From Candidatus Hatepunaea meridiana (lineage in GTDB: Bacteria > Electryoneota > AABM5-125-24 > Hatepunaeales > Hatepunaeaceae), in contig JAVCDD010000229.1 of assembly GCA_030765125.1 (NCBI GenBank), positions 1 to 22,185 of the forward strand: a stretch of 22,185 nt of DNA, written 5' to 3'. A model generated the notes under the pieces. That model ran no database searches. It was not told where the DNA came from and saw only the letters and a list, made by a program, of their open reading frames with translations. Below, piece after piece: positions 1-21,762 of the stretch. A program made the position numbers and the translations under genes. Positions within the stretch are counted from its first letter, which is position 1; each line of letters begins with the position of its first letter.

Positions 1-294
1 CCCGGGTCGCTTTATGAAACATTCCGACCGGATAAGGCAAAGTGGCTATGGGAGAGATTTGAGTTTGTTTATACTCCGAAGCATGGGAGTTGGTTAAACA
101 TGGCTGAGATAGAATTGAACGTTATTACGGGACAGTGTCTGAATCGAAGGATTGACGATATTGAAGTTGTTAGGAAAGAGGTACATGCATGGCAAGAATC
201 CAGAAACAATAAAAATGCAAAGGTTAATTGGCAGTTCACAACTAAAGATGCTCGTATAAAATTGTCTCGACTTTATCCGACAATTGATGGTTGA
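1..294 (+). CDS. IS630-family (Tc1/mariner superfamily) transposase, C-terminal fragment; 5' end lies outside the window
   Basis: Frame 1 is open from nt 1. It reads PGSLYETFRPDKAKWLWERFEFVYTPKHGSWLNMAEIELNVITGQCLNRRIDDIEVVRKEVHAWQESRNN...VNWQFTTKDARIKLSRLYPTIDG, with a TGA stop at 292..294. The TPKHGSWLNMAEIE and FTT.DARIKL.RLYP motifs are the characteristic C-terminus of IS630-family transposases as I remember them. Confidence 0.75.
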   Translation, partial: PGSLYETFRPDKAKWLWERFEFVYTPKHGSWLNMAEIELNVITGQCLNRRIDDIEVVRKEVHAWQESRNNKNAKVNWQFTTKDARIKLSRLYPTIDG

Positions 295-350
295 CGTGAC
301 ACTAGACGCGGATTAGCAATAATTCTGAATCAAATATTACCTCCAAAAAG
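1..350 (+). mobile_element. right-hand portion of an IS630-family insertion sequence; the right terminal inverted repeat cannot be pinned down without the left end
   Basis: The transposase tail is followed by about 55 bp before homology to the effector-like gene family resumes near 352. A TA-containing junction is expected for IS630 but was not resolved. Confidence 0.45.
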
Positions 351-387
351 TAGAAATGACCTTCAGGATTTTAGCCAACCTGAAGGA

Positions 388-1017
388 ATGCACCCAGGAG
401 GTAATCATCATCATTACAGTTGCTATTTAACGACGCAGGATTTACCAGAGGATAGCAGTGGAACCGAAATCTGGTGGAATAACAGGATTACTGATTCAAT
501 CATTCCAACCATACAGCAAATCGTTGATCAACATAACTCATCTGGCAACTATAGAGGTCGTGACGCAGCCTGGATACAGCTCAGGTCGGGATTCAGATGC
601 CCAATAAGGAATAAAAGTTCACAAGTTAAAGGTGCAAATAACAGTCCGCATTTAATGGGCGCAGCCGTTGATCACAAAATTTTGTGGGATAGTCAAGATC
701 TTAACATTGACGCCGATCGAAGACGTCTTTCCAAAATAACCTATCAGATATTTTTTAAATATGATAGCCTGCTTTTTCAAGGTGGCTATCTCTATGGTGT
801 AAGAATTAATAGTGATGGAACAGCAGTTAATTCAGGCTCTTCAAGGCTACGGGATAATCGTTTCTGGAACAAGGATGGTCAAAGGCGTTATACATATCCC
901 CCTAACCCAACTGAAGTCCGGCATTTGTGGTATGTTTGGAGCGCCGGAGATACTACAAAGGTAGTGATGACCCGTGGACACAGTGATTGGTTTCCCAACA
1001 AGAAAAGGAGAAGATAG
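388..1017 (+). pseudogene. 5'-truncated paralog of the 1956..3659 gene, retaining only the C-terminal LAS/M15-like zinc-peptidase domain. The frame is open from 295 and homology starts near 352.
   Basis: MHPGGNHHHYS...SGFRCPIRNKSSQVKGANNSPHLMGAAVDH...TRGHSDW aligns with residues ~390-586 of the 586-aa ORF (GMHPSGIHHHYS...SGYRCPIKNSNLGGAGGSAHMFGSAIDY...RAHTDIR). The N-terminal ~390 codons are replaced by the IS630 element. The stop at 1015..1017 lies 8 nt before the P1 start. Confidence 0.6.
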
Positions 1018-1025
1018 GAGAAATA

Positions 1026-1883
1026 ATGAAAAGAACATTAGCAATTGTCGTAATAATTCTATCCATGTTTTCAACTAATGCTTTCGCCCAGGAAACGCCT
1101 TTGGACACAATAGTAGTCTGGTTTAGCGATTCGCTGAATCAGAATAGACAGGTAAGCGCGTTCTTTACTATCATAGAATCCCACAATTATCATTTCACTG
1201 GGAAAATGGTCGAAGTTAAACCGGAATATGATTCTTCGAAAGTGCGCGACGCATTTGAAGTTTTCGTCAGATCAATCTCTATTAACGCCCCCGTTTATCA
1301 CCCTTTGGATTTCATTGCCTCACAACATCTGGCGACGCCGCCTGTCGCAGACGATACGCTCGGACAAATTGCGCTGGAGAATTGGGATTCACCGGACATT
1401 CTTGACATGGATCTAAGTCTGTACGTTAACTGGGGTTTTACATCCGATCTCTATGAAATAGCGGATATTTTATATGAACCTCAGGGAATAGGGTACTACT
1501 GTGATGTCTGGAACGAGATGGGTATCGGTTATTTTGAGTATATAGAAGATCAACTGGAAGCCGATTCAACCGAATATATGGGTATCTGGAAATGCTCACA
1601 ATATCTGGCTCGATGCGTTGATAAGGATACTACTATTGAGACGAAAGCACTAGAAATACTGTTGGATTGTGCTGCTTCAATGTCACCAGCGCGTCATAGA
1701 GGTATTGTTGGAGAAGGTATCGTCCAGTTATACATGATTGGATACACGGAAGTCAAAAATACTATTGATTCTCTATTAGTCGACCCTGTTCCATCTGTTA
1801 AACGAAAAGTCGTGTGGGATATCCAGAACCAACAACGAAAGAACAACCTCCTGATGGAGTTTAACCTCGGTTCTGATGAATAA
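1026..1883 (+). CDS. secreted protein of unknown function, paralog P1 of a four-member family
   Basis: ATG at 1026 with GGAG at 1017..1020. Signal peptide MKRTLAIVVIILSMFSTNAFA|QE. The family-conserved blocks are present: TPLDT.VVWF.DSLNQ, FVRSI.INA, LSLYVNWGFT.DLY.IAD and the C-terminal QQRKNNLLMEFNLGSDE. Confidence 0.8.
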   Translation: MKRTLAIVVIILSMFSTNAFAQETPLDTIVVWFSDSLNQNRQVSAFFTIIESHNYHFTGKMVEVKPEYDSSKVRDAFEVFVRSISINAPVYHPLDFIASQHLATPPVADDTLGQIALENWDSPDILDMDLSLYVNWGFTSDLYEIADILYEPQGIGYYCDVWNEMGIGYFEYIEDQLEADSTEYMGIWKCSQYLARCVDKDTTIETKALEILLDCAASMSPARHRGIVGEGIVQLYMIGYTEVKNTIDSLLVDPVPSVKRKVVWDIQNQQRKNNLLMEFNLGSDE

Positions 1884-1903
1884 CTTTTCCTTTGAATTTT
1901 GAC

Positions 1904-1935
1904 AAAACCCACTCCGTTAATTCGGAGTGGGTTTT
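1904..1935 (+). terminator. rho-independent-type hairpin between P1 and the large gene (aaaacccactccg-ttaatt-cggagtgggtttt, followed by a T-rich stretch)
   Basis: 13-bp perfect stem, 6-nt loop, followed by tttcttctct. A copy at 6269..6300 carries compensatory substitutions. The ORF-track start at 1899 is a TTG read through this hairpin and is rejected. Confidence 0.55.
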
Positions 1936-1955
1936 CTTCTCTGACCGGTTACAAC

Positions 1956-3659
1956 ATGACTGGTGTATTTGCCCCCGACCCGATTGATGATTATCTTGTC
2001 AATGGAGCTTCGCTTGAGGCTTACGTTATGCTGAACGATAATAACGTCGGTTCCGATACTATTGCAGTTGATTCGCTGCCTCCACCAGAGATACGGGTAT
2101 ATTTCGCCAACAGCGGCTACGAGGAGGTTCCGAAGGGAGCATTCTTCTACGTCCACTGGGACAGCATCTGGGTGGTGGTGGACAGCTTGACCGATGCTCA
2201 AGTACCGACGGTAACATTGGAGTTCAGTGCAAATGGCAAGATCTTCGGTGCGGGAGACATTGCCTGGGATTCGGATTCATCTTACTGGAAAACAGGCGTA
2301 TCAATTGACGCTGACGCCATTCCGACATTGGAGGAGTGGTATATGTATCCATGCGACATCCTGCGAGCCCACGCCAATTACAGCGACACTCATACAACCG
2401 ATGAAATCCGCTGCTTCGACCTGGTCGTCAACACCGGCAGTCTGCGCAACTACAACGGCTCGCCTCCGGTAGTAATGGCTTTAAGGCGCGATGACGATGC
2501 AGATGTCAATGACAGTGGCTTTGTGGCTAATCGGGTTTTATATGACTGGAATGATAACTACTTCGGAGACAACCTGTTTCTGGAATTGCAGAGCTTTAAT
2601 GTTAATCCCGATACGCTCAAAGCCTGGTTTGAATCGGCACAATTCACACAATACTTGCTTGATCCGTTCAACAATAATCATGGCAGCGCTGCATTCTTCT
2701 CTTTGGACGATTTCAGCGGTGAACCATACAACTACCTGAGTGACCTGTTCCAATCATATACTGTTTGGATATCCCAGGGTTGGCCCACGATAGATACTCC
2801 TTCAACCTCAACCGGCAGGGCACACAGGCTCAGGTACAAGGTTACTATAACAGTCAACAATTGGCGCACGGACTGGTGGCCAAGCCAGAACTCATTTATC
2901 GTTTCCAGTCCGATGATTTACCAGAATCCGGTGGATATTTTGCGGCAGGAGTATTTTGATCTGTATGGGAAAATAAGAAGGATCGTTGGAGATGATACGA
3001 TTTTTTACGTTGATCCTGAATGGATTAGTCCTTTATTATCAAATAACTTTATTGACTATGATGTGCCGTTAGGGATGCATCCAAGCGGTATTCACCATCA
3101 CTACAGCAATCATGACAGTACTCAGAACCTCGCGCCTGCAGATAGTATTTTTGAAATCTGGTGTGATTCGAGCATAACAGTGCTAATTGATTGGATTGGA
3201 TGCTACGATTTCAGTGACATAGACCCAAACCTTGTTATAAACAGAACATTTACTTCAGGTTACAGGTGTCCAATCAAGAACTCTAATCTAGGTGGTGCAG
3301 GTGGGAGTGCACACATGTTTGGCAGCGCTATTGATTATAATTTGTACTGGAATGAGTTCAGACATACGAACGAAGATCATAGAAAGAAGCTTTCGAAAAT
3401 CTTTTACAAGGTCTATTCTAGCGCGAATTTACAGCCTGCCAACCATAATTATACTGGATTGTATGGTCAGAATGTCAACAATTGGGGAACCGAGATTATC
3501 TTTAAACGATCTTACTTCCTCAATGATACTCTCGGAAGAGTTGATGGCTATCCAGATCCAGGGAAAGCCTTAGAATGGCCATTACGGTACATTTCAGGAA
3601 ATGATACGATCATTGTTTGTTATACAAGAGCTCACACAGATATTCGTCATCGAAGATAA
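1956..3659 (+). CDS. large (567-aa) protein with no signal peptide. The N-terminal ~390 aa are unknown. The C-terminus is a LAS-family zinc peptidase domain of peptidase M15 / DUF882 (MepK/YcbK-like or VanX/VanY-like) type. Candidate peptidoglycan-hydrolase effector.
   Basis: The first ATG after the hairpin is at 1956; the N-terminus is not hydrophobic. The C-terminus carries SGYRCPIKNSNLGGAGGSAHMFGSAIDY (the SxHxxGxAxD zinc-ligand motif) and a distal YTRAHTDIRHRR (the H.D.R motif of M15A/DUF882 enzymes). A truncated paralog lies at 388..1017. Confidence 0.7.
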   Translation: MTGVFAPDPIDDYLVNGASLEAYVMLNDNNVGSDTIAVDSLPPPEIRVYFANSGYEEVPKGAFFYVHWDSIWVVVDSLTDAQVPTVTLEFSANGKIFGAGDIAWDSDSSYWKTGVSIDADAIPTLEEWYMYPCDILRAHANYSDTHTTDEIRCFDLVVNTGSLRNYNGSPPVVMALRRDDDADVNDSGFVANRVLYDWNDNYFGDNLFLELQSFNVNPDTLKAWFESAQFTQYLLDPFNNNHGSAAFFSLDDFSGEPYNYLSDLFQSYTVWISQGWPTIDTPSTSTGRAHRLRYKVTITVNNWRTDWWPSQNSFIVSSPMIYQNPVDILRQEYFDLYGKIRRIVGDDTIFYVDPEWISPLLSNNFIDYDVPLGMHPSGIHHHYSNHDSTQNLAPADSIFEIWCDSSITVLIDWIGCYDFSDIDPNLVINRTFTSGYRCPIKNSNLGGAGGSAHMFGSAIDYNLYWNEFRHTNEDHRKKLSKIFYKVYSSANLQPANHNYTGLYGQNVNNWGTEIIFKRSYFLNDTLGRVDGYPDPGKALEWPLRYISGNDTIIVCYTRAHTDIRHRR

Positions 3660-3673
3660 TTTTGGAGATGAAA

Positions 3674-4504
3674 ATGAAGCAGTTCAAATTTTCGTTTTTA
3701 GTTCTATTAATGCCGCTAATGCTTGCTAATGCATCAGCTTGGCAAGATTCAATAGTTGTTATGTTTGACAGAACAAAAAACCAGTATACTCAAAGGTGGG
3801 CGTTCAGGACAATTTCAGAACTCACGCCAGCGTTTGTGAGACCGTTTGCAAATACGACCATAAAGGATGATTTTAACACAACCGATGTTAAAGCCGCCTT
3901 TGTTCGATTCGTTGAGTCAATTACCATAAACAAACCTGATCCGTACCCTCCCGATTTTGTTCCCTGTGCCTATCTTGATACTCCAGGAGATGATCGGGAC
4001 ATTGAGGGTATGATTGAGCTTCCTTATATTCTGAGTTTATGTGTCTCATGGAATATTGGTGGGAATCTATACACTATTGCTGATTCGCTATACATAGGGT
4101 ATAATCATTTGTTTCCCGTATATTGTTTTATCTGGAATCAAATGGATACCAGTTACTTCAATCACGTACTTACCCGAACTCAGACCGATTCAACTTTTGT
4201 GAATGGCGTTGGAATAGCGGAGGCGTACCTTTTGTACGGTGAGGATCCAAAGAAAGAGATGAAGAAAATTGCTCTTGATATCCTCGAAACGGGAGCGTTC
4301 TCGCCCTATTACGAAATCCGTCGTTGGACTGCTTATAGAATTGTGAAAGTATATACTGCAGGTTACACATCACTGTTTTCAAGTGTAAATACGTTATTGC
4401 ATGATTCAAGGCAACCCATCAGGTATGAAATCAACTACGAAATATCTAAACAACAGCGCAGAAACAACGCCCTGATGGAGTTTAACCTTGGTTCTGATGA
4501 ATAA
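3674..4504 (+). CDS. secreted protein, paralog P2. An alternative start at 3668 would add MK.
   Basis: GGAG at 3664..3667, so the ATG at 3674 has better spacing. Signal peptide MKQFKFSFLVLLMPLMLANASA|WQ. Conserved FVESITINKP, SLCVSWNIGGNLYTIADSLY and the C-terminal QQRRNNALMEFNLGSDE. Starts 15 nt after the stop of the large gene. Confidence 0.75.
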   Translation: MKQFKFSFLVLLMPLMLANASAWQDSIVVMFDRTKNQYTQRWAFRTISELTPAFVRPFANTTIKDDFNTTDVKAAFVRFVESITINKPDPYPPDFVPCAYLDTPGDDRDIEGMIELPYILSLCVSWNIGGNLYTIADSLYIGYNHLFPVYCFIWNQMDTSYFNHVLTRTQTDSTFVNGVGIAEAYLLYGEDPKKEMKKIALDILETGAFSPYYEIRRWTAYRIVKVYTAGYTSLFSSVNTLLHDSRQPIRYEINYEISKQQRRNNALMEFNLGSDE

Positions 4505-5369
4505 AGGTGTGAAATATATTGTCTTCATTCTGCTTGGGTTGGTGATGTTTGCTAATAGCGCTTTTGCACAAAGTACTCCTTTAGATACAGTTGTTGTCTG
4601 GTTCAACGATAGTCTAAATCAAGAAAAACAGGTTGGTGCATTCTACACAATTATTGTACAAGAGGACTATCATCGATCAACTGATATGGTTGAAGTAAGT
4701 CCAGAATATGATTCTACTAGAGTTCGTAATGCTTTCGAAAATTTTGTACGATCAATTACAATAAATGCTTACACTAGTTATCCTCCAGGATTTAAAGCTA
4801 GTTTATCATTAAACAATCGACCTGCGCCTGAAGATTCCGTTGGATTGCAGGAAGCTGAAGAATGGGATGTCCCTCATATATTGGATTATGTGCTAAGTTT
4901 ATACGTAAATTGGGGATTCACGACAGACCTCTATACAATTGCTGACTTGCTATATCAACCTCATGTAAATCGTATAGGCTATTACGCAATCATTTGGAAT
5001 GAATTAGGTATGGATTATTTCGAACACCTTGAAGATGAACAGGAATCCGATTCAACATTTTACAAAGGTATTTGGATTTGCTCCGAATACCTAACTCAAG
5101 CATACATAAAAGAAGATGACTTGGAAGAAAAAGCCCTTGATTTGCTAGCTGATCGAACACTATCCGGTGTCTCTTCAGTACAAAGAATGTACGCGGGTGC
5201 GAGAATGGTTGAGATCTATATGAAAGGTTATACAAATGTAAAAGCTTGCATAGATACCCTACTACAAGCTGATGATCAATACGTAAAACGCGAGGTTATA
5301 TGGGATATTCAAGAACAACAACGTAAAAACAATCTCCTGATGGAGTTCGACCTCGGTTCGGATGAATAG
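4497..5369 (+). CDS. secreted protein, paralog P3
   Basis: The ATG at 4497 sits inside the GATGAATAA that terminates P2, giving an 8-nt overlap. Signal peptide MNKGVKYIVFILLGLVMFANSAFA|QS. 60-70% identical to P1 over the N-terminal half. C-terminal QQRKNNLLMEFDLGSDE. Confidence 0.8.
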   Translation: MNKGVKYIVFILLGLVMFANSAFAQSTPLDTVVVWFNDSLNQEKQVGAFYTIIVQEDYHRSTDMVEVSPEYDSTRVRNAFENFVRSITINAYTSYPPGFKASLSLNNRPAPEDSVGLQEAEEWDVPHILDYVLSLYVNWGFTTDLYTIADLLYQPHVNRIGYYAIIWNELGMDYFEHLEDEQESDSTFYKGIWICSEYLTQAYIKEDDLEEKALDLLADRTLSGVSSVQRMYAGARMVEIYMKGYTNVKACIDTLLQADDQYVKREVIWDIQEQQRKNNLLMEFDLGSDE

Positions 5370-6247
5370 ATGTGTAAAATATATTGCCTTCATTCTGCTT
5401 GGGTTGATGATTTCGGTTTCACAAATTTATGCGGAAACTGTTCCGGTTGACACCGTAATCACCTGGTTCAACTCATATTGCGACCAAACCAAACAAGTGA
5501 AAGCGTTTTATACAATTGCAATACCGGTAAGAGAAACGGGAGTTTCTTATACTGGCAATAGTGTTTGTTATTGTCCATATCGAATGCTAGGCGTAAAAGC
5601 AATTTACGATACCAGCTCCGTAAAAGATGCCTTCAAAAAACTTCGTTCGTTCCATAACAATCGCTGATTGTACTTCAAGTTGCGACAGTGTTATTCTCTC
5701 GGAAGAGATTTACGGTCCACTACCTGGTGTTGATTATCAGGATTGGGAACCTAGTTACATCCAGAATTCAATATTGAGCCTTTACCTATGGTGGGAGATC
5801 ACTGATGATTTAAACGATATTGCCGACCATCTTTTTACTGGTTTGAATTACCTTGATGGTTATTACTCGTATCTGTGGGATAAGATTGGCACAAGTTATT
5901 TCGAACATGTTAAAACAAAAGTTCAAACCGATACAACATTTACTTTAGGATTGATGATTGCAGGCGCTTACCTCAAGAGCCCTGAAAATCAAATCGATTC
6001 TATGGCGAGTATTGCGGTCGATATTTTAAAAGCAGGTGTAGAATCTGATGTTCGGCAACTGCGCTCAACAACTTCATTTTTAATAGTCGATGCTTATCTA
6101 AAGGGACACGATGATCTGAAGAATGGGATAGATTCGCTATTGAATGACCCTTCGGCAACTACTCGGAGAAATGTATCTTATCAGATCGAAAGACAACAAC
6201 AGAGAAACAATCTCCTGATGGAGTTCGACCTCGGTTCGGGTGAATAG
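5362..6247 (+). pseudogene. secreted-protein paralog P4, disrupted by a +1 frameshift in an A6 run at 5635..5640. Also possible: a sequencing error or a slippage site.
   Basis: The ATG at 5362 again sits inside GATGAATAG of P3. Signal peptide MNRCVKYIAFILLGLMISVSQIYA|ET. The ORF track splits it into 5362..5667 and 5627..6247. Removing one A from ttcAAAAAActt restores DAFKNFVRSITIADC, matching FVRSI(S/T)INA in P1-P3. C-terminal QQQRNNLLMEFDLGSGE. Confidence 0.7.
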
Positions 6248-6440
6248 CCTTTCCTTTGTGTTTCAACCAAAGCCCGTTCCGTTAATTCGGAGCGGGTTTT
6301 CTTTTTGTACCAGTTACAACCTGACTGGTATATTTGCCCCCGACCCAAATGATGATTATCTTGTCAATGGAGCTTCGCTTGAGGCTTATGTTATGCTAAA
6401 CGATAATAACGTCGGTTCCGATACTATTTTAGTATGCTGC
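6248..6440 (+). repeat. ~185-bp direct repeat of 1884..2063 (~90% identity): the intergenic hairpin plus the first ~55 codons of the large gene. The start codon is changed to CTG.
   Basis: Aligned by eye. Identical stretches include gcccccgaccc, gatgattatcttgtcaatggagcttcgcttgaggcttayGTtatgct and aacgataataacgtcggttccgatactatt. Similarity is lost near 6430-6445, where a secretin fragment begins. Confidence 0.8.
6269..6300 (+). terminator. second copy of the intergenic hairpin (aaagcccgttccg-ttaatt-cggagcgggtttt, followed by ctttttg)
   Basis: Stem preserved relative to 1904..1935 through paired substitutions (ac>gt on the left arm, gt>gc on the right; one G-U wobble). Confidence 0.5.
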
Positions 6441-7138
6441 AGTTAAATGGTTTTAAAGAACTCGATTTTGGCAGTATAACGGCAGTTTTTAAATCGCTGG
6501 CAAATGATCAGATTGGCGAAATTATTGCCAGTCCGCAAATCACAGTTCAATCAAACAACGAAGGTCATATCCAGATAGGCAGCGATTTCTCTGTAAGTAC
6601 TAAGGATTATTCTGGTAACACTGTTACGCAATTTTTTTCCGCAGGTACAATTATTAATGTAAATCCACATATTTTTACATTGGATACAGTAACATTTATT
6701 CACCTTGATCTTGATGTCCAGAAAAGCAGTGCGTCCGCCAGCGATCTTGGTATTGAAGTAAAAAAATCATCCGCAAAAACTTCAATATTATTGCTCGATG
6801 GAGAGGAAACAATGATTGGGGGATTATATTCAAAAGAAAAAGCTCATTCCAGAGATGGTGTTCCTATTCTTAAGGACCTGCCGGGGTAGTTACTTGGATT
6901 GAAGTATCTGTTTGGTTATGAGACGGAGAGTATGATCTACAAAGAACTGATAATCATTCTGCGAGCAGATTTGGTGCCCACACTTGAAGAACGATTGAAG
7001 AATCGACTGAGTGATGCTAAGAAACAAAACATCCTGAAAAGCAGCATAGACAGATATAGAGAGGAAATGCGGAACTACGATGCGCAATTAAATAAGAACA
7101 AACTAAAAAACAATAAAACGAATCGGTTATACCCTTAG
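6434..7138 (+). pseudogene. secretin (GspD/PilQ family) C-terminal domain fragment. It lacks its N-terminal half and has an in-frame TAG at 6887..6889.
   Basis: SPQITVQSNNEGHIQIGSDFSV...LLLDGEETMIGGLYSKEKAHSRDGVPILKDLPG * LLGLKYLFGYETESMIYKELIIILRADLV matches the secretin motifs (S.P.I.T.NNQ.A.I.VG...DGET.VLGGLI....VP.LGDIP.LG.LF....EL.IFITP). Both ORF-track pieces (6434..6889 and 6899..7138) are in frame 2. The fragment starts exactly at the repeat breakpoint, and its 3' end runs into the MITE at 7123. Confidence 0.65.
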
Positions 7139-7328
7139 CTCAGCAATGTATAATCATTGTTAAAGCCCCAATGTCTCTAATATGCAAACCTATTACAAGT
7201 AGTGTGCGAGTCTTTCCAATATATTAGATGAAAGAGTCGATTTAATGATACCGGAGTAGTGAAGCTTGCTTCGCGTCACTACGCATAAGCAAGCTTATGC
7301 ACTCCGGCTGAGCTAAAGGCATAACCGA
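7123..7328. mobile_element. MITE-like element, copy 1 (206 bp), with 22-bp terminal inverted repeats TCGGTTATRCCYTTAGCTCAGC and flanking 9-bp direct repeats ATAAAACGA (7113..7121 and 7329..7337)
   Basis: Left end tcggttatacccttagctcagc. Right end gctgagctaaaggcataaccga, which is the reverse complement with 2 mismatches. An internal palindrome gaagcttgcttcgcg...cgcataagcaagctt. A second copy at 16106..16314 is ~93% identical. Confidence 0.65.
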
Positions 7329-7564
7329 ATAAAACGATTATTGTTCCTTAACACCGTGAGTAAAACCTGTTAATCCTGAACATATCCCTTCGAGAAATCC
7401 ATCTACGCGGTCTTTAGAATCAATCACTCTCTCGCGTGCATTTAAGAATTAATGACCAAAGACAGGTGTTAATGGGAGATTTAAACAAGGACACAGACAG
7501 GAATGCTGAAGATTATCTGGCTATGCTGTCAACCCCAGTCAGGCTATGCGGGAATACCTAATAT

Positions 7565-7638
7565 TGTCATTCCGGACTTGATCCAGAATCCACTATTAAC
7601 AACAACTTACTGGATTCCGGATCAAGTCCGGAATGACA
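7565..7638. repeat. 74-bp near-perfect palindrome (28-bp arms tgtcattccggacttgatccagaatcca / tggattccggatcaagtccggaatgaca, 18-nt centre), ~70 nt past the 3' end of the HK gene
   Basis: The arms are reverse complements with a single mismatch. Arm length, loop length and GTCATTCC...GGAATGAC termini match the palindromes at 21938..22010 and 22087..22159. Confidence 0.7.
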
Positions 7639-7706
7639 AGTTAGAGAAAAATCCTATACCTGTACATCCTGCTGTTGATTAACAGCCATCATCCTTTCGC
7701 ATTGAT

Positions 7707-12014: not shown

Positions 12015-14168
12015 CTAACTTTCTTGCTCATCAATAGATGAATATTTCTTTGGCTGCCCGAGTTTCTCCAACAGCTCATTGACTTCGCGTTTCATTTCGA
12101 CGATGCGGTATTCCCTGCCCATAAAGAGCCTATTTGTTTTTTCGATTTCTTCCATTTGCTTTTTCAATGCCTCTTCTGATCGCTTGCGCTCAGTGATGTC
12201 AACAACGATTCCTCTAAATCCGATTGGATCGTTTTCACGCATAATAGGAGAGGAATAGATGATTACAGGAAATTTCGTTCCGTCTTTCCTTATGGCTGTG
12301 TATTCACCACCTCCTAATAGTTCTCCCTTTATTATCCTCGCAATATTTTCAGCTGCTCTTCTTCTGTCAACAGGAGCAACCATCTGCAGCGAGTCGATAC
12401 CCTTCGCGTAATCTTCGCTTGTGTACCCAAACCTTTCAAATCCAATCTGGCTGACAAATGTGAGGTTACCCTCCAAATCACATTCATAAATACACTCAGG
12501 GAAAAGTTCCGCCATATCTCTGAATCGACATTCGCTTTCCAGTAACGTCTTCTCCGCCCGTTTGCGTTCAGTGATATCTTCCCCTGAACTTAGTGTTCCT
12601 GAAATATTTCCTTTATCATCTACCAGAATAATATTATGCCACGCGATCAGCCGTTCTTCGCCTTCCACTGTTAAAATAGGATTTTCATAGTATGCTTCCG
12701 AATCTATATCACCTGCAGTCAAATCCGCATGAACGAATTTCATTTCTTCTCGCAATCTTTCGGGCAGAAAATTTTCTAACCAGTTCTTTCCAAGGATTTC
12801 CTCTTTCTCATAACCCAGAATCTCGCACCCTTTATTGTTTATCATCGTCACTACGCCATTATGATTGAGAGCCACGAACATCACACCTGCAATGTTTAAG
12901 TACGTCTGTGATTTACTCCTTTCTTCCCATAACGCTTCCTCTACTCTCTTACGCTCGGTGATGTCCCTTATGAAGGCTAAGACGGTGGGTTTCGCTTCAT
13001 AATCAGTCAAGGATGCATTTGCCTCAACTGGAAAAGTTGAACCATCTTTTCTGAGAAGCTCAAATTCATAGATATTAGGTACAGGTCTTCCCGCTAGACG
13101 ATCTTGATGTTTTTTCAAAACAAATTCTCTGGAATGCGGCGCAATAAAATCAATGAAGTTTTTATTAATCATTTCTTCAAGGGTGTAACCAACTAATTGA
13201 GCCCCTGCAGGGTTCACATACTTCAAAAGACCATCCTGAATTAAAATTATACAATCTTGGGAGCTCTCAACCAGACTGGAGTACTTCTTCTCGGATTCCT
13301 TCAGCTTTTCCTCCGCCCGTTTGCGATCTGTGATGTCACAAACAATAGACATAAACAACTTCTGTCCACTGGTTTTTAAAGGCACAATTGTTAACTCCAG
13401 AACAATCTTTGTACCATCTTTTCGCAATGCATCTCTCACAATGGGCATTTCAATGGGCTGATCAAGATTATTGTAAATCTGTAATCGACCATAGTGTTTT
13501 GCTTGTAAATCAGACGTTTTCATTGATAAGAGTTCTACGCGAGAGTAACCAAATAATTCGCATGCTTTATCACTGAAATCGATTATTTCTTGATTTTCAT
13601 TTTCCAACACTATTGCATCGCCCGCCTGTTCAAAAAGCGCCCGATAACGCTCCTCACCTATCAGCAGCGTTTCCTCAGTTTTTTTTCGTTCGGTGATGTC
13701 GCGTATGATGGCTGAAGCCCAGTATTTTTCTTTTATGCGAATCGGGGAAACTGCTATTTCTATCGGAAACTCGTTGCCGTCCTTGCGCATCGCGGTCAGT
13801 TCAACCACCTTACCGATGGCATTTCCATCTCCCGTTTTCTTGAATGTCTTGAATCCTTTCTTGAACTGAGCGCTATATTGTTTAGGCATAAGAATCTCGT
13901 GGACGTTCTGATCTGTCATTTCTTCATTGGTGTATCCGAAAATACGTTCCGCTGCCGGATTCCAGTACACGATGTTTCCGTCATCATCAATCAGGATCAC
14001 CGCATCAAGCGCCGAGGCACTGATAACGCGGAATTTCTCCTCACTTTCCTTCAGCAGCTCCTCCATCTGCTTGCGTTCGATTTCCGATCCTTCAAGTTCG
14101 GTAATCCGCTGACGCATCGCAGCTAACTCGTCAATTAGCTGCGCTTTGGTTTTGATTTGATCGTTCAT
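12015..14168 (-). CDS. multi-PAS-domain signalling protein (717 aa) with no recognisable output domain; the C-terminus is a coiled coil
   Basis: At least five PAS/PAC units separated by DITERK(K/R)xEEAL linkers. Ends KQMEEIEKTNRLFMGREYRIVEMKREVNELLEKLGQ, with no H-box or ATPase motifs. The first ~30 codons are identical to the ORF at 15279..15674. Confidence 0.85.
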   Translation of the reverse strand: MNDQIKTKAQLIDELAAMRQRITELEGSEIERKQMEELLKESEEKFRVISASALDAVILIDDDGNIVYWNPAAERIFGYTNEEMTDQNVHEILMPKQYSAQFKKGFKTFKKTGDGNAIGKVVELTAMRKDGNEFPIEIAVSPIRIKEKYWASAIIRDITERKKTEETLLIGEERYRALFEQAGDAIVLENENQEIIDFSDKACELFGYSRVELLSMKTSDLQAKHYGRLQIYNNLDQPIEMPIVRDALRKDGTKIVLELTIVPLKTSGQKLFMSIVCDITDRKRAEEKLKESEKKYSSLVESSQDCIILIQDGLLKYVNPAGAQLVGYTLEEMINKNFIDFIAPHSREFVLKKHQDRLAGRPVPNIYEFELLRKDGSTFPVEANASLTDYEAKPTVLAFIRDITERKRVEEALWEERSKSQTYLNIAGVMFVALNHNGVVTMINNKGCEILGYEKEEILGKNWLENFLPERLREEMKFVHADLTAGDIDSEAYYENPILTVEGEERLIAWHNIILVDDKGNISGTLSSGEDITERKRAEKTLLESECRFRDMAELFPECIYECDLEGNLTFVSQIGFERFGYTSEDYAKGIDSLQMVAPVDRRRAAENIARIIKGELLGGGEYTAIRKDGTKFPVIIYSSPIMRENDPIGFRGIVVDITERKRSEEALKKQMEEIEKTNRLFMGREYRIVEMKREVNELLEKLGQPKKYSSIDEQES

Positions 14169-15278: not shown

Positions 15279-15674
15279 TCAATTCCAGGAGCCATTCCTA
15301 TGCCGAAAACGATATTCATGATAATGCTGACCATTCTTGAAAATCTGACCAATATTTGCAAATACACGCGGCGCGTCTTCCGGATGTATATGTTTTGCCC
15401 AGAAACCAGAAGACAAGAATTCTTCCGGATCATACCCTATTAAGGTTTTTATATTCTCGCTTATGTATGTTGCGTCGAAATCACCCGTTGCTTCACAGGT
15501 ATAAATCATGGCAGGACTCGCTTCAAGCAAACGCTGTAGTTGATTGTGTGCGTTTAAAAGCGCTTCCTCCGCTTGCTTGCGTTTGGTTTCCGATCCATCA
15601 AGTTCGGTAATCCGCTGACGCATCGCAGCTAACTCGTCAATTAGCTGCGCTTTGGTTTTGATTTGATCGTTCAT
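15279..15674 (-). pseudogene. truncated PAS-domain paralog (131 aa, a single incomplete PAS domain ending ...YRFRHRNGSWN*)
   Basis: The N-terminus MNDQIKTKAQLIDELAAMRQRITEL is identical to the 717-aa protein. The PAS core ends prematurely, where the conserved continuation after RHRNGSW is missing. GC-rich noncoding DNA follows. Confidence 0.55.
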
Positions 15675-17135: not shown

Positions 17136-17729
17136 TCATAGATTTTCAATCAAGGCTAACACCTTGTTTGAGTAACGTGTGCGAGGTGGTTTTAAATTCA
17201 GAGCAAACGTCCCGTATCTTCCTCGATTATAAGATGTCAGCGCCCAATGCAACGGCTCATTAAAATCGAGAAAGTGATTCATATGTTGCTCAAAAATCTG
17301 AATTCCCAAGTTAACGTTTGTGACAGGATCGTATAAATCGGCGGGTTTGATTTCTTTTCTGAGCTCCTTCGCCGCTATCATCCTGATTTGCATCAGACCG
17401 CGAGCCTCTCGTGTTGAGATGGCAAATGGCTCCCATAGTGATTCAATGGTAATAACAGCCTTGATTAGTTCCGGATAATCCGATGACTCGATTATCTCAA
17501 TAACCTGATGAGTCTTTTCATTGCCAATCTTTTCAGCTAACTTGCGATAGCCCCAGTAATTCCAGCTTGAAATCGGAACCTGGCTTGAAATTGATAACGA
17601 ATCATAAAAAATTGGCGTATGTCCAGTACTAACCAAGGAAAATACAACTAAAAGTGAGATTAGTGCATGTTTGATTTGTATTATAAGTCGCTCGACCATG
17701 AATATGCACCGCTTGAACTTGAGTAACAA
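17136..17729 (-). CDS. lytic transglycosylase, SLT-domain protein; start possibly at the internal Met at 17699
   Basis: TIESLWEPFAISTREARGLMQIRMIAAKEL...YDPVTNVNLGIQIF matches the SLT catalytic motif (ES...P.A.S..GA.GLMQ). N-terminal hydrophobic segment ISLLVVFSLVS. Confidence 0.75.
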   Translation of the reverse strand: MLLKFKRCIFMVERLIIQIKHALISLLVVFSLVSTGHTPIFYDSLSISSQVPISSWNYWGYRKLAEKIGNEKTHQVIEIIESSDYPELIKAVITIESLWEPFAISTREARGLMQIRMIAAKELRKEIKPADLYDPVTNVNLGIQIFEQHMNHFLDFNEPLHWALTSYNRGRYGTFALNLKPPRTRYSNKVLALIENL

Positions 17730-17744
17730 AACGGATCTGTTTTA

Positions 17745-18050
17745 CTACACTGAGGAAGTCTCAAGCCTGGCTAATCTTTCCTCTATCCGCGTGAGAGTAT
17801 CGTCTTGTCGTCTATTAAATTCATTCTGGTGAAACATGGGATTATTAACCCACCAGTCCATGCCCATTTCTTTAGCTTTATCCACAGAGCAGATCACCAA
17901 TCGAATCTGGATAGTCAGTAATTCGACATCGGCGATATTAATCCTGATATCACCGGCTATTACAATCCCCTTATCCAGAATACGCTCTAAAATGTCCGCC
18001 AAAGTGCTGGAATTGGTTGAATGTTGCATTGCTTGTTGCTGTATTGCCAC
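17745..18050 (-). CDS. gvpJ: gas vesicle protein of the GvpA/GvpJ family, GvpJ-like (101 aa, GTG start)
   Basis: LADILERILDKGIVIAGDIRINIADVELLTIQIRLVICSVDKAKEMGMDWW is the GvpA-fold core with the extended C-terminus of the J/M subfamily. GGAGA 7 nt upstream of the GTG. Confidence 0.7.
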   Translation of the reverse strand: MAIQQQAMQHSTNSSTLADILERILDKGIVIAGDIRINIADVELLTIQIRLVICSVDKAKEMGMDWWVNNPMFHQNEFNRRQDDTLTRIEERLARLETSSV

Positions 18051-18063
18051 TTAATTATCTCCT

Positions 18064-18459
18064 TTAGAATAATTTCCCAATAGGACCAAGATCAATGTTT
18101 AGGTCGTCTTCCTTTAATCCAAACTCTCTGCTGATTCTATTGATTTCTTCTGTCTGCTGCATTAAAGTTAACCCGAGTTTTTCAATCTCGGCATCTGTCA
18201 ATGATCCTGCGTCGATGCGTCTTATTGCCTGCTTCTCTAAAAGCTCGTGAAGCAGTTTAATAATTGATAACACCAGTTGAGCAAGTCCATTTTTTACCTT
18301 TTCCGCGTCCAAGTTTATTCTATCTTTCCCTTTTATCCTTGAGATAGATTTTGCGGTATTTTGTTTATTAGGCAGAAGAGAACCTTGTCCTTTTTGCATT
18401 ATTTTACTAAAATCGCTCAGTGCATTGGATTCTACAACCGGCTGTTTAAAAGGTGACAT
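18064..18459 (-). CDS. gvpK: gas vesicle protein GvpK
   Basis: GLAQLVLSIIKLLHELLEKQAIRRIDAGSLTDAEIEKLGLTLMQQTEEINRISREFGL matches the GvpK signature (LV.TL.ELLR.L.E.QA.RR...G.LTDEE.ERLG..LM). AGGAGA 6 nt upstream of the ATG. Confidence 0.75.
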   Translation of the reverse strand: MSPFKQPVVESNALSDFSKIMQKGQGSLLPNKQNTAKSISRIKGKDRINLDAEKVKNGLAQLVLSIIKLLHELLEKQAIRRIDAGSLTDAEIEKLGLTLMQQTEEINRISREFGLKEDDLNIDLGPIGKLF

Positions 18460-18469
18460 TCATTATCTC

Positions 18470-18676
18470 CTATGATTTCAATTCCTTCGGAATCAGCTCA
18501 TCTTGAATTGTTTTAATATTAGTTAGAATGAGTTGAAGTTCAAGGTAAATCAGATCGATACCCGCAACTGAGAGTGTTACATCTCCAATAACGACAACAC
18601 CTTTATTAAGGACTCGGTCGAGCAATTCACATATAGAGACATGTTCTGTTTCGTTTAAATTTGAATGGTCGGTCAT
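18470..18676 (-). CDS. small gas vesicle protein of the GvpA/J/M family, GvpM-like (68 aa from the internal ATG at 18676)
   Basis: ICELLDRVLNKGVVVIGDVTLSVAGIDLIYLELQLILTNIK is the GvpA-fold core. AGGAGAG precedes the ATG at 18676. The longer ORF-track version would overlap the upstream ATPase gene. Confidence 0.65.
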   Translation of the reverse strand: MTDHSNLNETEHVSICELLDRVLNKGVVVIGDVTLSVAGIDLIYLELQLILTNIKTIQDELIPKELKS

Positions 18677-18719
18677 AACTCTCCTAAACGGTAATAATGA
18701 TTTATGATGTATTGCATGT

Positions 18720-20654
18720 TCAAGTTTTCCAATAGAGAGCATCTCCCAGTTTCTGAAGCTGCTCCAAACCGCGAGGTTCGCCGTTGCGATAGATCATTAC
18801 CGGAGGAATACTGGTAAAAGTCTGAAAATATTTATGTAAGAGTTTAAATTCGCGCGCGTTTATCTCATTGCACAGATCACAACCATCGGAAGGTGTAGCC
18901 ATATTAATTAACATACTTGGTATGCCGATGCTCATCCTTTCACATGCAGATACAAGATCCTTGGTTTCTTCAAAAGCCATTTCAGTGAGAATTGTAACGA
19001 CATATAGTTTAGATCTCGCTGGATCAATCAATAGTTCGCGCAGATATTTGACATCTTTGGACATTTGCACTAATTTTTTCATAATCTCCGGAAGCTTGAA
19101 AACATTCTTGTATTTAAGAAAAAGATTAAAGAATGTCTTTAACCATTGCTCTATAAATTGCGGAAGTTCAAGAAGTCGAAGCAAATGACCGGTTGGTGCC
19201 GAATCAAGTATAAAATAATCGTATGTGTTTTTAGTGATAAATTCTATAGCGCGTGTGAGAGCCATGATTTCATCCAGTCCTGGTGGTGACACATCCATAA
19301 TTCGTGACATTACTTCACGATCAAAGACAAAATCAACATTGGGTGAAATAGTCTTCAGGAAGTTTTCTAATTCTTCTGAATACTGTTCCTTTAAGGTTCT
19401 AAATTCAGACTGAGCATCGATCTCTAAAGCTATTAATCCAGGCATCAATTCCTTTGGTTCTGAACCAACTTCCTTGTCAAAACAAACCGACAGTGAATGA
19501 GCAGGATCGGTCGAGAAGATAAAGGTTTTCTTTTCTGTAAATTCGCAAGCCAACCGTACTGCCGTCGCGCTGGCTAACGTAGTTTTTCCAACGCCGCCTT
19601 TCCCGGCAAAAAGCATAAATTTAGTTTCAGGAGTAGGGAGACATCGAGATCCCTCTACTCGGTATGACTTAGGTGCAGTCTTCAAATTAGGTTCTCCTGC
19701 ATCTGAAGGTTGCTTACTAATTTCTGAGATGTCTCCCCAAAACGTTTCAAGGACTTTTGTGCCTCGGATTTCCTTTTTATTAAGAGGTATTCCCCAGAGA
19801 GAATAATCTGTGAATTCCTGAATATGAAATTGCAGTGTTTCAATTTGATGTTTTCGCCAATGTGCACACACTCGGCATTTATTTTTAGGATAAAGTTTAT
19901 TTACGATAATTTCATTTACTGGTATTTTTAAGAAAGATAGCTGATTAATAAGTTCTCCAGTCTCATGAATACTTAACTCTTCAGCAAGCATAACTGGTAC
20001 GAATTGGCAGGTGACTGGATCCTGTAATAATGTTTCCATTCGATTAATAGAAGCAGAAAAATCTAAGAGGAATTCATCGATTTCATCTTTACGGTAGAAA
20101 CCACTGAAAAGCTTTTTCATGTAACGATGTTTTGCAAGCAAGGAATCCATGGCATCGATCCATTTACGAATCAATTGCGGCATTTCCAGGAGCCTCAGTG
20201 TATGACCGGTTGGAGCTGTGTCAACGATGATGCAGTCATATATGCCATCCTCAATCCATTTGATTATCTCAAGAAACGCCATAAGTTCGTCCATACCCGG
20301 TAGAGAAATGTCCAAGAATTGGTTAATATCCGCATCATCCAGAAATGTTCCGCGCGATGCAATCTTCCGGAATTTTGCATTGTGTTTCTTCTTGAAATCG
20401 GTCAGGAGAATTTGGGCATCGATTTCGGTGAGTTTTAAGTTCTGGGGAAGGGAGTTTCCAGCGAAGCTGTCCATAAGCGAGTGCGCCGGATCGGTCGAAG
20501 CGATAAGGAAAAAATCCTGAGGACAATTCTGCGCATATTGGATCGCAGTAGCTGCAGCACATGTAGTTTTTCCCGCTCCGCCTTTTCCGCTAAACAGGAT
20601 TAATCGCAAACCCCGTTTTTTTAAGAATGTAGGTATAAGTCCACCCGATAACAT
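18720..20654 (-). CDS. two-domain ArsA/Get3-family P-loop ATPase (annotated as arsenite-transporter ATPase-like), embedded in the gvp operon
   Basis: Two Walker A loops, FSGKGGAGKTT and FAGKGGVGKTT. Two DTAPTGH / DSAPTGH signature motifs and two TDPAHSL motifs. Start taken at the ATG at 20654 (MLSGG...) with GAGGAAAGGG upstream; the ORF-track start at 20666 is a TTG. Confidence 0.85.
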   Translation of the reverse strand: MLSGGLIPTFLKKRGLRLILFSGKGGAGKTTCAAATAIQYAQNCPQDFFLIASTDPAHSLMDSFAGNSLPQNLKLTEIDAQILLTDFKKKHNAKFRKIASRGTFLDDADINQFLDISLPGMDELMAFLEIIKWIEDGIYDCIIVDTAPTGHTLRLLEMPQLIRKWIDAMDSLLAKHRYMKKLFSGFYRKDEIDEFLLDFSASINRMETLLQDPVTCQFVPVMLAEELSIHETGELINQLSFLKIPVNEIIVNKLYPKNKCRVCAHWRKHQIETLQFHIQEFTDYSLWGIPLNKKEIRGTKVLETFWGDISEISKQPSDAGEPNLKTAPKSYRVEGSRCLPTPETKFMLFAGKGGVGKTTLASATAVRLACEFTEKKTFIFSTDPAHSLSVCFDKEVGSEPKELMPGLIALEIDAQSEFRTLKEQYSEELENFLKTISPNVDFVFDREVMSRIMDVSPPGLDEIMALTRAIEFITKNTYDYFILDSAPTGHLLRLLELPQFIEQWLKTFFNLFLKYKNVFKLPEIMKKLVQMSKDVKYLRELLIDPARSKLYVVTILTEMAFEETKDLVSACERMSIGIPSMLINMATPSDGCDLCNEINAREFKLLHKYFQTFTSIPPVMIYRNGEPRGLEQLQKLGDALYWKT

Positions 20655-20689
20655 CCCTTTCCTCAAGTTTAAAGTGGTCGTTCATTGGT

Positions 20690-20923
20690 TTAGAACTTTC
20701 GGCTCTCAAACTCATCAAGTTTGTCGAGAAGATCCTTCTCACGAGCCGTGAATTCGGACTCAGTAATTCTACCGGTTTCAAGCATCATATAGAGTTCACT
20801 TAGCTTGGTTTTAATTGCTTCTCCTTCAGAGAGAAGCTCTTCCTGAGCAGCATTGTGCAACTTTCGAGCAAGCCATATAACACCATGAATTGGAGCAAGC
20901 AGAATATCGTCGATAAGAAACAT
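20690..20923 (-). CDS. gvpG: gas vesicle protein GvpG
   Basis: MFLIDDILLAPIHGVIWLARKL...LSELYMMLETGRITESEFTAREKDLLDKLDE fits the GvpG pattern (MFLLDDLLL.P..G..W......E.......L.EL...LE.GEI.E.EF...E..LL.RL). Confidence 0.7.
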   Translation of the reverse strand: MFLIDDILLAPIHGVIWLARKLHNAAQEELLSEGEAIKTKLSELYMMLETGRITESEFTAREKDLLDKLDEFESRKF

Positions 20924-20954
20924 TGTTTAACTCACATTAGATAAGCGGAGAGTG

Positions 20955-20992
20955 GTGGAATGCGAAAACGGGAGACTATTTTCGCATTCCAC
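20955..20992. promoter_or_regulatory. perfect 14-bp-stem hairpin (gtggaatgcgaaaa-cgggagactat-ttttcgcattccac) immediately 3' of the gvpF/L stop, within the operon
   Basis: Seen directly. On the minus-strand transcript it lies between the gvpF/L stop (20995) and the gvpG start (20923). No strong U-tract follows. Confidence 0.5.
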
Positions 20993-20994
20993 AA

Positions 20995-21762
20995 TTATTC
21001 TTGAGAATCAACCTTCAAGTCAATATCGACAAAATTATGAGGAGCCCAGGGTCCATTGAAGTCGAATGCGAAATTATTGTCGAAAAACTTCGACGCATCG
21101 AATATGCCGTTTTCAAAACTTTTCTGCATATCTCGTTCCACGAGACATGCCAGATTCATTACTTCCTCCTCATTGCGGCAATTATTTCGTTTGATTTCTA
21201 CGCAGCTCTGTTCTAATGCATTTACAACCTGGTTAGTATAGGTTTCACGATCTTCATTAAGAAGTTGTTCAAACCTTCGACCGAGCTCGATCTTATCATT
21301 CTGGTTTATGGTTTGGCTTCGACCGAATAAACGATCACGCAGTATCCGCAGATCCGGATGAACGTGCACAAAGTATTCGAAGATATTCTGAACATCCCAT
21401 GCCACTCGCAAACCCATTTCGACCTTGTTAGCGACATTTCTGAGTTGCTCGATGAAGATGTTTTGGTTGAGAGAGAGAATCTTCCTGACCGCTTCTATGC
21501 TATCGGCAACGACTCCGAAAGTCATGGGCAGCGGTGTAGTCTCTTCCATGAGGAATCTAAGGACTCCCTGGTGAGCCGCTAAGTTGCGACGTTCCGGACG
21601 CAGTTTCCTATTTGCAATGTCACTGACAACGGCTGAAACAACGCTGTCCGAAATATGGTAAACTACGCCATCATCAATACCTATAGCGCCATAATCCTTT
21701 TCTTCAGCATTGGAAACGACAGCATATAGATAATGTCCTTTTTTAACTTTTTCTTCAGGCAT
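20995..21762 (-). CDS. gvpF: gas vesicle protein of the GvpF/GvpL family
   Basis: YLYAVVSNAEEKDYGAIGIDDGVVYHISDSVVSAVVSDIANRKLRPERRNLAAHQGVLRFLMEETTPLPMTFGVV matches the GvpF/L N-terminal signature (YVYGVV....G..G....V....LAAVVS.V.....RPER.NLLAH..VLE.....TVLPMRFG.V). Confidence 0.8.
   Translation of the reverse strand: MPEEKVKKGHYLYAVVSNAEEKDYGAIGIDDGVVYHISDSVVSAVVSDIANRKLRPERRNLAAHQGVLRFLMEETTPLPMTFGVVADSIEAVRKILSLNQNIFIEQLRNVANKVEMGLRVAWDVQNIFEYFVHVHPDLRILRDRLFGRSQTINQNDKIELGRRFEQLLNEDRETYTNQVVNALEQSCVEIKRNNCRNEEEVMNLACLVERDMQKSFENGIFDASKFFDNNFAFDFNGPWAPHNFVDIDLKVDSQE

Follow-up and report, generated by a model that had tools for sequence, protein, structure and literature searches.

Introduction

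Among the described systems closest to the locus considered here, colicin M and pesticin are paired with the immunity proteins Cmi and Pim, respectively; the colicins lack signal peptides and are freed by lysis proteins, and the activity domains are those of a phosphatase and a muramidase. Polymorphic toxins are defined by a constant N-terminus with swapped C-terminal toxins, and orphan toxin–immunity arrays are known from the contact-dependent growth inhibition (CDI) and Rhs systems. Antibacterial type VI effectors with a Peptidase M15_3 domain are also on record, such as Tpe14 of Acinetobacter baumannii, which combines LysM, Peptidase M15_3 and M23 domains, and the immunity proteins of type VI peptidoglycan hydrolase effectors carry signal peptides as a rule (PMC6833914); there are LysM/M15 examples in Neisseria (PMC10210955). 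Here, we analyse the entire 22,185-nucleotide (nt) contig JAVCDD010000229.1, hereafter the window, from a metagenome-assembled genome (MAG) of Candidatus Hatepunaea meridiana (phylum Ca. Electryoneota, Fibrobacteres–Chlorobi–Bacteroidetes (FCB) group), an organism from the anoxic zone of Ace Lake, Antarctica, that has been described as a degrader of complex organic matter (PMC9324843). Our subject is the open reading frame (ORF) at 1956..3659, termed ORF B, which NCBI annotates as a 'D-Ala-D-Ala carboxypeptidase family metallohydrolase'. We conclude that ORF B is a 5′-truncated copy of a rare family of long genes, and we favour, with some confidence, the view that it is an orphan or relic of a system made up of a Sec-exported peptidoglycan-hydrolase toxin and periplasmic immunity proteins, at a locus that is decaying.

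The type of system, a peptidoglycan hydrolase with a periplasmic inhibitor, is already known, whereas the architecture and the family of downstream partner proteins are new; the latter is unrelated to any described immunity family open to comparison. As with the type VI effectors, an M15_3 wall-cleaving domain is found beside a signal-peptide protein at accessory, variable loci; however, type VI effectors have no signal peptide and ride on VgrG or Hcp, whereas the complete family members have Sec signal peptides, and there are no type VI genes in the window. With colicin M and pesticin, the family would share a large multi-domain protein that attacks the wall from the periplasm through its C-terminal domain, with a dedicated periplasmic immunity gene alongside, but here the domain is of the M15 type and there is no sequence similarity. 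The tandem 5′-truncated toxin fragments, each followed by an immunity-like gene, recall the CDI and Rhs arrays, and their high-identity stretches could support recombination; unlike those arrays, the copies in the window share one toxin-domain type, the contig holds no full-length gene and no two-partner or Rhs features, and the fragments are partly decayed.

An initial annotation, made from the sequence alone, had seen in ORF B the layout of a polymorphic toxin, and had proposed a check of whether homologs of its first 390 residues are fused to other toxin domains. The array of truncated fragments with downstream partners agrees with the first proposal, but neither C-terminal swapping nor a dedicated export route was found. 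The four full-length homologs all end in the same M15 domain, as does each fragment extending into the C-terminal part; no homolog of residues 1-370 with another C-terminus was present among the 1.84 billion representatives to which an exhaustive HMMER search was applied, and a homologous N-terminus joined to unrelated C-terminal toxins was therefore not seen. With one and the same M15 domain in every homolog, the family shows no polymorphism through exchange of domains. In ORF B and its relatives, Pfam identifies no type V, VI or VII export marker domains, and a secretin pseudogene is the only such feature in the window. Moreover, ORF B should not be counted as a signal-peptide-less toxin or a new delivery architecture, because it is a broken copy.

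ORF B is a 5′-truncated copy of a rare family of long genes

ORF B exists as first described, running from ATG to TAA over 567 codons, and its parts are as follows:

1956..3659, + strand: copy B (ORF B), an intact 567-codon ORF with its ATG at 1956 and its TAA at 3657-3659
ORF B residues ~15-155: immunoglobulin-like (Ig-like) β-sandwich
ORF B residues ~155-370: conserved region without an assigned fold, with the motif ILRQEY at 328-333
ORF B residues 373-382 (nt 3072-3101): GMHPSGIHHH motif
ORF B residues ~400-567: M15 core, with SGYRCP at 434-439, H453, D460 and H560

The HMMER search recovered eight relatives of ORF B, bringing the family to ~ten sequences overall; a word-indexed search with ORF B returned only itself, and one with the family alignment only the relative P0003. 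Four relatives (P0003, P0004, P0006 and P0007) are full length, at 1266-1327 residues, and all four open with typical Sec signal peptides, e.g. MKKRAILSLLAIISIALPALA-EQ. The entire ORF B aligns to the last ~560 residues of each of these (E-values of 2e-51 to 2e-14): residues 9-563, for example, match residues 759-1321 of P0003 with 32% identity (E 2e-51), in a family where identity ranges from 20 to 42%. The homology starts no more than ~5 residues after the ATG at 1956, and ORF B represents the C-terminal ~43% of the family protein, the signal peptide and ~750 further residues being absent.

The lack of a signal peptide in ORF B, correctly noted at the outset, is thus explained by truncation and is not the sign of a special export route. 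Likewise, since the signal peptide and ~750 residues are missing upstream, the 390-residue 'N-terminal region', previously cast as a delivery domain, is the middle of a ~1300-residue protein, the real N-terminus of which is absent; the earlier picture of a large protein was right as to the ORF, but overlooked that the ORF corresponds only to the 3′ portion of the far longer genes of a family. The description of the 390 residues themselves bears up: they are enriched in D, N, W and Y and free of hydrophobic segments (the 19-residue Kyte–Doolittle mean peaks at 1.23 in ORF B), and the first ~370 residues have no match in Pfam, NCBIfam, PHROGs, PADLOC or PDB sequences. A complete family protein would consist of a Sec signal peptide, ~750 residues without an assigned fold, the Ig-like β-sandwich, a conserved linker of ~220 residues and a divergent M15 domain.

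A start for ORF B at TTG 1899 was considered and rejected, as this codon lies inside a terminator hairpin and homology to the relatives begins at approximately residue 5 of the ATG form. The G+C content declines along the gene from 5′ to 3′, being 50.8% at 1956-2400, 46.2% at 2401-3030 and 39.6% at 3031-3659, as compared with 41.4% for the contig and 44-58% for the homolog loci; ORF B may be a mosaic, the front part of which was acquired from a donor of higher G+C content.

None of 185,579 representative genomes (a set that excludes the source MAG) holds the family, and only two unrelated M15 proteins from Gemmatimonadota were returned. A metagenome scan added contigs L009 (identical to P0003), L010 (from the same organism) and L011, and nothing else, while exact-sequence look-ups for P0001 and P0002 gave no record. 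At 1040-2116, L011 carries another 5′-truncated family copy, the start of which corresponds to approximately residue 188 of ORF B and which overlaps, in another frame, the end of an unrelated 347-residue ORF; this copy may have been truncated independently of ORF B, or may be fused, through a frameshift, to another N-terminus. A breakpoint shared between the start of ORF B and the end of a big-gene fragment on contig L018 was also entertained, but was dropped because residue counting leaves a gap of ~90 residues. Separately, three contigs from Gemmatimonadota (Ca. Palauibacter; L007, L008 and L012) encode longer proteins that end in an M15 core with a similar His-rich motif upstream (GGYHSSHDG ... 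SGYRCPVRN ... NHNHLAWR), and these may be a distant sister group of the family's C-terminal domain.

The C-terminal domain carries the core of an M15 zinc peptidase

To judge from its sequence, the C-terminal region of ORF B (~190 residues) carries the core of an M15 (LAS) zinc peptidase. The three LAS motif blocks that had been pointed out are present, namely SGYRCP (residues 434-439), SAHMFGSAID (451-460, containing H453 and D460) and HTDIR (560-564), and the M15 assignment is supported by a number of comparisons. The Pfam profile PF08291 (Peptidase_M15_3; gathering score 23.2 bits) matches ORF B with 25.4 bits (E 1.6e-5), although it spans only ~32 residues; P0007 (41.0 bits; E 2e-10) and P0006 (23.7 bits) likewise score at least the cut-off, whereas P0003 (18.0 bits) and the window's copy A (19.6 bits; see below) fall beneath it. 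PHROG 894 (endolysin) matches with an E-value of 4.7e-5, the core motif alone being matched among the PHROGs. A profile of the family's C-terminal domains has a sole match in the PDB, to 1lbu, the zinc D-Ala-D-Ala carboxypeptidase of Streptomyces albus (E 0.005), in which SRHMYGHAAD aligns with SAHMFGSAID of ORF B; matches of the family core to MepK are sub-threshold. Additionally, hhalign matches 37 core columns, and no more, to three ordinary M15_3 proteins with 98.4% probability; this is a weak control, because these templates were picked by the same motif.

The zinc-ligand motif H-x(6)-D is found within S-x-H-x-x-G-x-A-x-D, and its His and Asp are invariant in all eight family sequences aligned. 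Across all members, the invariant residues are S434, G435, R437, C438, P439, N442, S451, H453, G456, A458, D460, S480 and H560, with a few more appearing in smaller alignments. H560 is invariant in every sequence that extends to the C-terminus and is likely to be the third zinc ligand; its equivalence to the third ligand of M15 enzymes is drawn from position and conservation, because the stretch around it does not align to ordinary M15 profiles. The family has in common with MEROPS M15/PF08291 proteins (1LBU, MepK and the phage L-alanoyl-D-glutamate endolysins) the pattern SG[FY]R...S-x-H-x-x-G-x-A-x-D, which holds two zinc ligands, and a His near the C-terminus that is the likely third. It differs from them in that the domain ends a ~1300-residue protein, in the ~100 residues that separate D460 from H560, in having no conserved acid by the last His, and in an extra GMHPGG-x-HHH motif upstream; the core alone aligns. 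This motif, GMHPGG-x-HHH(Y), is conserved in most members, ~50 residues ahead of the M15 core, and may supply the catalytic or second metal-binding His that the C-terminal end lacks.

An AlphaFold2 model of ORF B was calculated from an eight-sequence alignment, with a mean predicted local distance difference test (pLDDT) score of 54.5. Residues ~400-565 form a usable α/β domain (pLDDT 60-88), whereas residues 155-400 are too poor to use, despite containing the family-conserved ILRQEY and GMHPGG-x-HHH motifs. The predicted order of elements in the C-terminal domain is helix, strand, SGYR, helix with the His, strand with the Asp, long helix, strands, and strand with the His, which seems in keeping with the LAS fold. 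Fold searches with this model found the Ig-like domain and returned no LAS enzymes; as the Ig-like domain dominated them, they are no clean test of a LAS fold in the C-terminal domain.

These limits would suit an explanation in which only a short motif is shared with M15 proteins, the domain being no peptidase but perhaps a binding module or an enzyme of other chemistry: every profile match spans only ~32-37 residues, the latter half of the domain fails to align with ordinary M15 proteins, and fold searches recovered no LAS enzymes. Such an explanation strikes us as most improbable, however, given that the matched stretch is exactly the catalytic core, with two of the three zinc ligands inside it, that P0007 matches PF08291 with 41 bits (E 2e-10), and that the C-terminal His is invariant in all members, where M15_3 proteins place their third ligand. 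Moreover, the secondary-structure order presumably fits the LAS fold, as noted above, and searches swamped by the Ig-like domain are no test of the C-terminal one. From family membership, the domain is predicted to cleave peptidoglycan in a zinc-dependent manner.

Signal-peptide partner proteins are encoded directly downstream

The family gene is accompanied by partner genes, three of which are intact in the window and one frameshifted; their products are ~280-290 residues long, with signal peptides and a conserved C-terminus, ..NNLLMEFNLGSDE:

1026..1883, + strand: partner gene A, 285 residues, starting 8 nt after copy A; signal peptide and HEAT-like helical repeat
3671..4504, + strand: partner gene B1, ~277 residues, starting 11 nt after ORF B; 35% identical to partner A
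4497..5369, + strand: partner gene B2, 290 residues; 55% identical to partner A
5362..6247, + strand: partner gene B3, a frameshift pseudogene (ORFs 5362..5667 and 5627..6247)

The N-terminus of partner A, MKRTLAIVVIILSMFSTNAFA-QE, is read as a signal peptide, and the two ORFs of B3 align to the N- and C-terminal parts of one partner protein. At each of the four full-length loci, a partner homolog (31-36% identity) starts 14-16 nt downstream of the family gene, in one to three tandem copies, and in every locus a partner stands directly downstream (8-16 nt); the immunity role is a prediction. The partner family forms seven clusters among 5.8 billion sequences. It also occurs without the enzyme: one member, P0016, is a lone partner gene between genes for an HD-GYP response regulator and ClpB on several contigs, and on L018, two partner genes follow a fragment of the big gene that lacks the entire C-terminal part. 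A model of partner B2 has stacked antiparallel helix pairs, as expected of an α-solenoid of the HEAT type, and the HEAT fold of partner A is carried over from this paralog. The predicted fold is therefore a protein-binding α-solenoid rather than that of an enzyme. We regard the partners as putative periplasmic immunity or inhibitor proteins, and B1 as the candidate cognate immunity gene of copy B.

The homolog loci adjoin transposase, restriction-modification and Fic genes, neighbours that are typical of accessory islands. Their distribution bears on whether the family could be a housekeeping or scavenging envelope peptidase, i.e. a large secreted enzyme that remodels the cell's own wall or digests wall debris, with the HEAT-like partner as its regulator, chaperone or scaffold. 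The nearest named relatives of the core (MepK, below threshold, and the S. albus carboxypeptidase) do remodel walls, HEAT repeats are generic binding scaffolds, and the organism is described as a degrader of complex organic matter (PMC9324843). Against this, the family is rare and patchy (~ten sequences in 1.84 billion representatives and none in 185,579 representative genomes), its loci lie in mobile or defence islands, the partner genes are found both as divergent tandem copies and, elsewhere, with no enzyme gene beside them, and copies in the window are readily lost or broken. A role of this kind is rather improbable in our view; rarity, island context and lone partners disfavour housekeeping in particular, scavenging being less affected.

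Two further readings were tried and set aside. A phage origin received no tblastn match in 50,697 phage records, viral contigs gave only an ordinary small M15 protein, and the endolysin PHROG matched the core motif only; membership of a defence system was likewise abandoned, as PADLOC gave nothing. As a separate observation, weak gp25/sheath-initiator and phage head-fibre matches lie beside two full-length homologs (L006 4868-5224 and L003 8045-9878), but nothing else pointed to phages or to a contractile-injection system.

Three damaged copies in the window

Besides ORF B and the partner genes, the locus comprises the following features:

1..305, + strand: 3′ end of an IS630-like insertion sequence (IS) element, with a transposase C-terminus ORF at 100..294 and a right terminal inverted repeat ending at 305
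306..1017, + strand: copy A, an IS-cut 3′ remnant with the M15 domain only; ORF 388..1017 (209 residues) plus in-frame homologous sequence at 307..387
1905..1945, + strand: intrinsic terminator of partner gene A (AAAACCCACTCCG-TTAATT-CGGAGTGGGTTTTCTT), its hairpin at 1905-1937 ending ~18 nt before ORF B
6268..6433, + strand: copy C, the terminator repeat and the first ~37 codons of ORF B
6434..7138, + strand: secretin gene remnant, C-terminal part only, with an in-frame TAG at 6887-6889; joined to copy C

The window thus holds three damaged family copies, A (306..1017), B (1956..3659) and C (6268..6433), which, with partners A and B1-B3, form a tandem array of 5′-truncated toxin-like fragments and partner genes. 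The first of these abuts an IS that we take to be of the IS630 type from our own reading of the transposase sequence. L010, an independent metagenome contig, is 100% identical to the window over 1..1346 and runs 916 nt further upstream, where the complete IS is seen; it contains two transposase ORFs and is bounded by terminal inverted repeats of 34 nt (L010 1-34 and 1188-1221), which place the right end of the IS at window position 305. Copy A is 30% identical to residues 374-562 of ORF B (E 2e-21), which bears out the truncated paralog reported at 388..1017, and upstream of the ATG at 388, its in-frame translation (..ILPPKSRNDLQDFSQPEGMHPGG) still resembles P0004 (..ISPPFYADLIADRMPVGMHPGG). 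The divergence between A and B had been read as consistent with diversifying toxin domains; however, 30% falls inside the family-wide range of 20-42%, and the divergence is therefore, by itself, no evidence of diversifying selection.

Copy C is 90% identical to 1903..2068, with CTG at 6321 in place of the ATG, and its homology stops abruptly at 6433; an ORF lying over it (6240..6446) translates to ..TGIFAPDPNDDYLVNGASLEAYVMLNDNNVGSDTI. A twin of the terminator hairpin was called by the terminator scan at 6269-6300; compared with the first, both its arms are altered, in a way that keeps them paired. The junction of partner 3′ end, terminator and truncated start hence occurs twice, at ORF B and at 6268-6433. 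Across the two junctions, the first ~110 nt of coding sequence are ~96% identical, whereas the adjoining partner 3′ ends are 77% identical.

The secretin remnant consists of two ORFs, 6434..6889 and 6899..7138, that share one frame; Pfam PF00263 (Secretin) matches with an E-value of 4e-24, and NCBIfam matches to PilQ and GspD are partial and far below the cut-off. L018 has a PilM/PilO/T2SSB/secretin cluster downstream of its partner genes. A functional link to secretins is not supported beyond this anecdotal case: the window remnant and the L018 secretin share a generic 31% identity over 42 residues.

The state of this array bears on whether ORF B might work as it stands, be it as a cytoplasmic or non-classically exported M15 enzyme, as a silent recombination cassette, or as a toxin delivered by other machinery. 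In its favour, ORF B is intact over 567 codons with all its catalytic-motif residues, and the truncation falls just ahead of a complete Ig-like domain; the near-identity of the ~110-nt coding 5′ ends of copies B and C (~96%, against 77% for the partner 3′ ends) could reflect gene conversion or recombination, and the L011 copy is truncated at a different point, behind an unrelated ORF. However, ORF B has no signal peptide, all complete relatives use a Sec signal peptide, the Pfam scan finds no secretion-system marker domain in it, and there are no type V, VI or VII secretion genes in the window. Moreover, it begins ~18 nt past a terminator, with no site found by the promoter scan between that terminator and the ATG, an ATG that is not kept in copy C, and its surroundings are decayed (IS, frameshift, nonsense codon and stub). 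Overall, we consider a working ORF B unlikely, though conceivable. In particular, because it lacks a signal peptide and stands directly behind a terminator, it is unlikely, on its own, to act as an exported toxin; it lies among an IS-interrupted copy, a 37-codon stub, a frameshifted partner gene and the remnant of a secretin gene, and is most likely an orphan or relic.

Putative function of the family

In the system of which we take ORF B to be a relic, the big protein would be exported by Sec to the periplasm and then released from the cell, and its M15 domain would cut the peptide stems or cross-links of peptidoglycan, with H453, D460 and H560 binding zinc and R437 aiding catalysis, as their conservation suggests. 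To judge by their synteny, location and fold, the co-transcribed periplasmic HEAT-like proteins (~290 residues) would bind the enzyme and inhibit it, thereby shielding the producer's wall. A toxin/immunity pair acting in the periplasm fits the wall-cleaving domain, Sec export, divergent tandem partners, lone partners and island setting; the setting does look like a toxin/immunity island, with tandem signal-peptide partners downstream, truncated copies and an IS here, and lone partners in other genomes. In the window, the system would be decaying or reshuffling: copy A is cut by the IS, copy B lacks ~750 codons, copy C is a stub and one partner is frameshifted. The intact partner genes may nevertheless still protect against the toxins of neighbouring cells.

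A number of points weigh against this reading. Toxicity, immunity and passage through the outer membrane are inferred throughout. ORF B is intact over 567 codons and retains all motif residues, which is also compatible with a gene still in use. The family numbers ~ten sequences, and the synteny statistics are consequently thin. The view of the locus stops at the IS, and a full-length copy may still exist in the genome. As for the enzyme, the M15 match is limited to the ~37-residue core, the second half of the domain being unaligned to ordinary M15 proteins; the D460–H560 gap of ~100 residues compares with ~30-50 estimated from three ordinary M15_3 sequences; a conserved acidic catalytic residue next to H560 was not found in the family alignments; and fold searches with the ORF B model returned Ig-like matches only and no LAS enzymes.

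Approximately 1100 of the ~1300 family residues, and the whole of the partner protein, belong to no described family, and both are very rare in public data. The arrangement of the genes points to a wall-degrading toxin that depends on Sec, together with an inhibitor built of helical repeats, in 'dark matter' phyla. If this is confirmed, peptidoglycan biology would gain a new enzyme/inhibitor pair, and studies of competition between bacteria in anoxic lake communities would gain a marker. A more ambitious, and doubtful, proposal is that the complete family represents previously undescribed giant Sec-exported bacteriolytic toxins of uncultured FCB-group and other environmental bacteria, with a new HEAT-repeat periplasmic immunity family, and that the truncated modules are recombination cassettes for swapping enzyme/immunity specificity. 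The ~110-nt near-identical coding 5′ end and the terminator would then belong to the cassette, and the recipient would be an expressed full-length gene beyond the IS.

Other features of the window

Between the secretin remnant and the 3′ end of a histidine kinase gene, a near-perfect inverted repeat is present at 7564-7639, with 32-nt arms that are 94% complementary and a 12-nt spacer, and further inverted repeats lie at 7123-7328; these could be a terminator or a small mobile element. On the − strand, 17136-21762 is occupied by a gas-vesicle cluster comprising two GvpA-type genes, GvpK, a double ArsA-like ATPase, GvpG and GvpL/F, with a gene for an SLT-domain lytic transglycosylase at its end; the gas-vesicle passages of the Ace Lake paper, in the portions consulted here, concern another phylum (PMC9324843). 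Also on the − strand, two PAS-domain proteins (12015-14168 and 15279-15674), the shorter of 131 residues, share their first ~25 residues (MNDQIKTKAQLIDELAAMRQRITEL) and are probably the product of a duplicated or truncated sensor gene.

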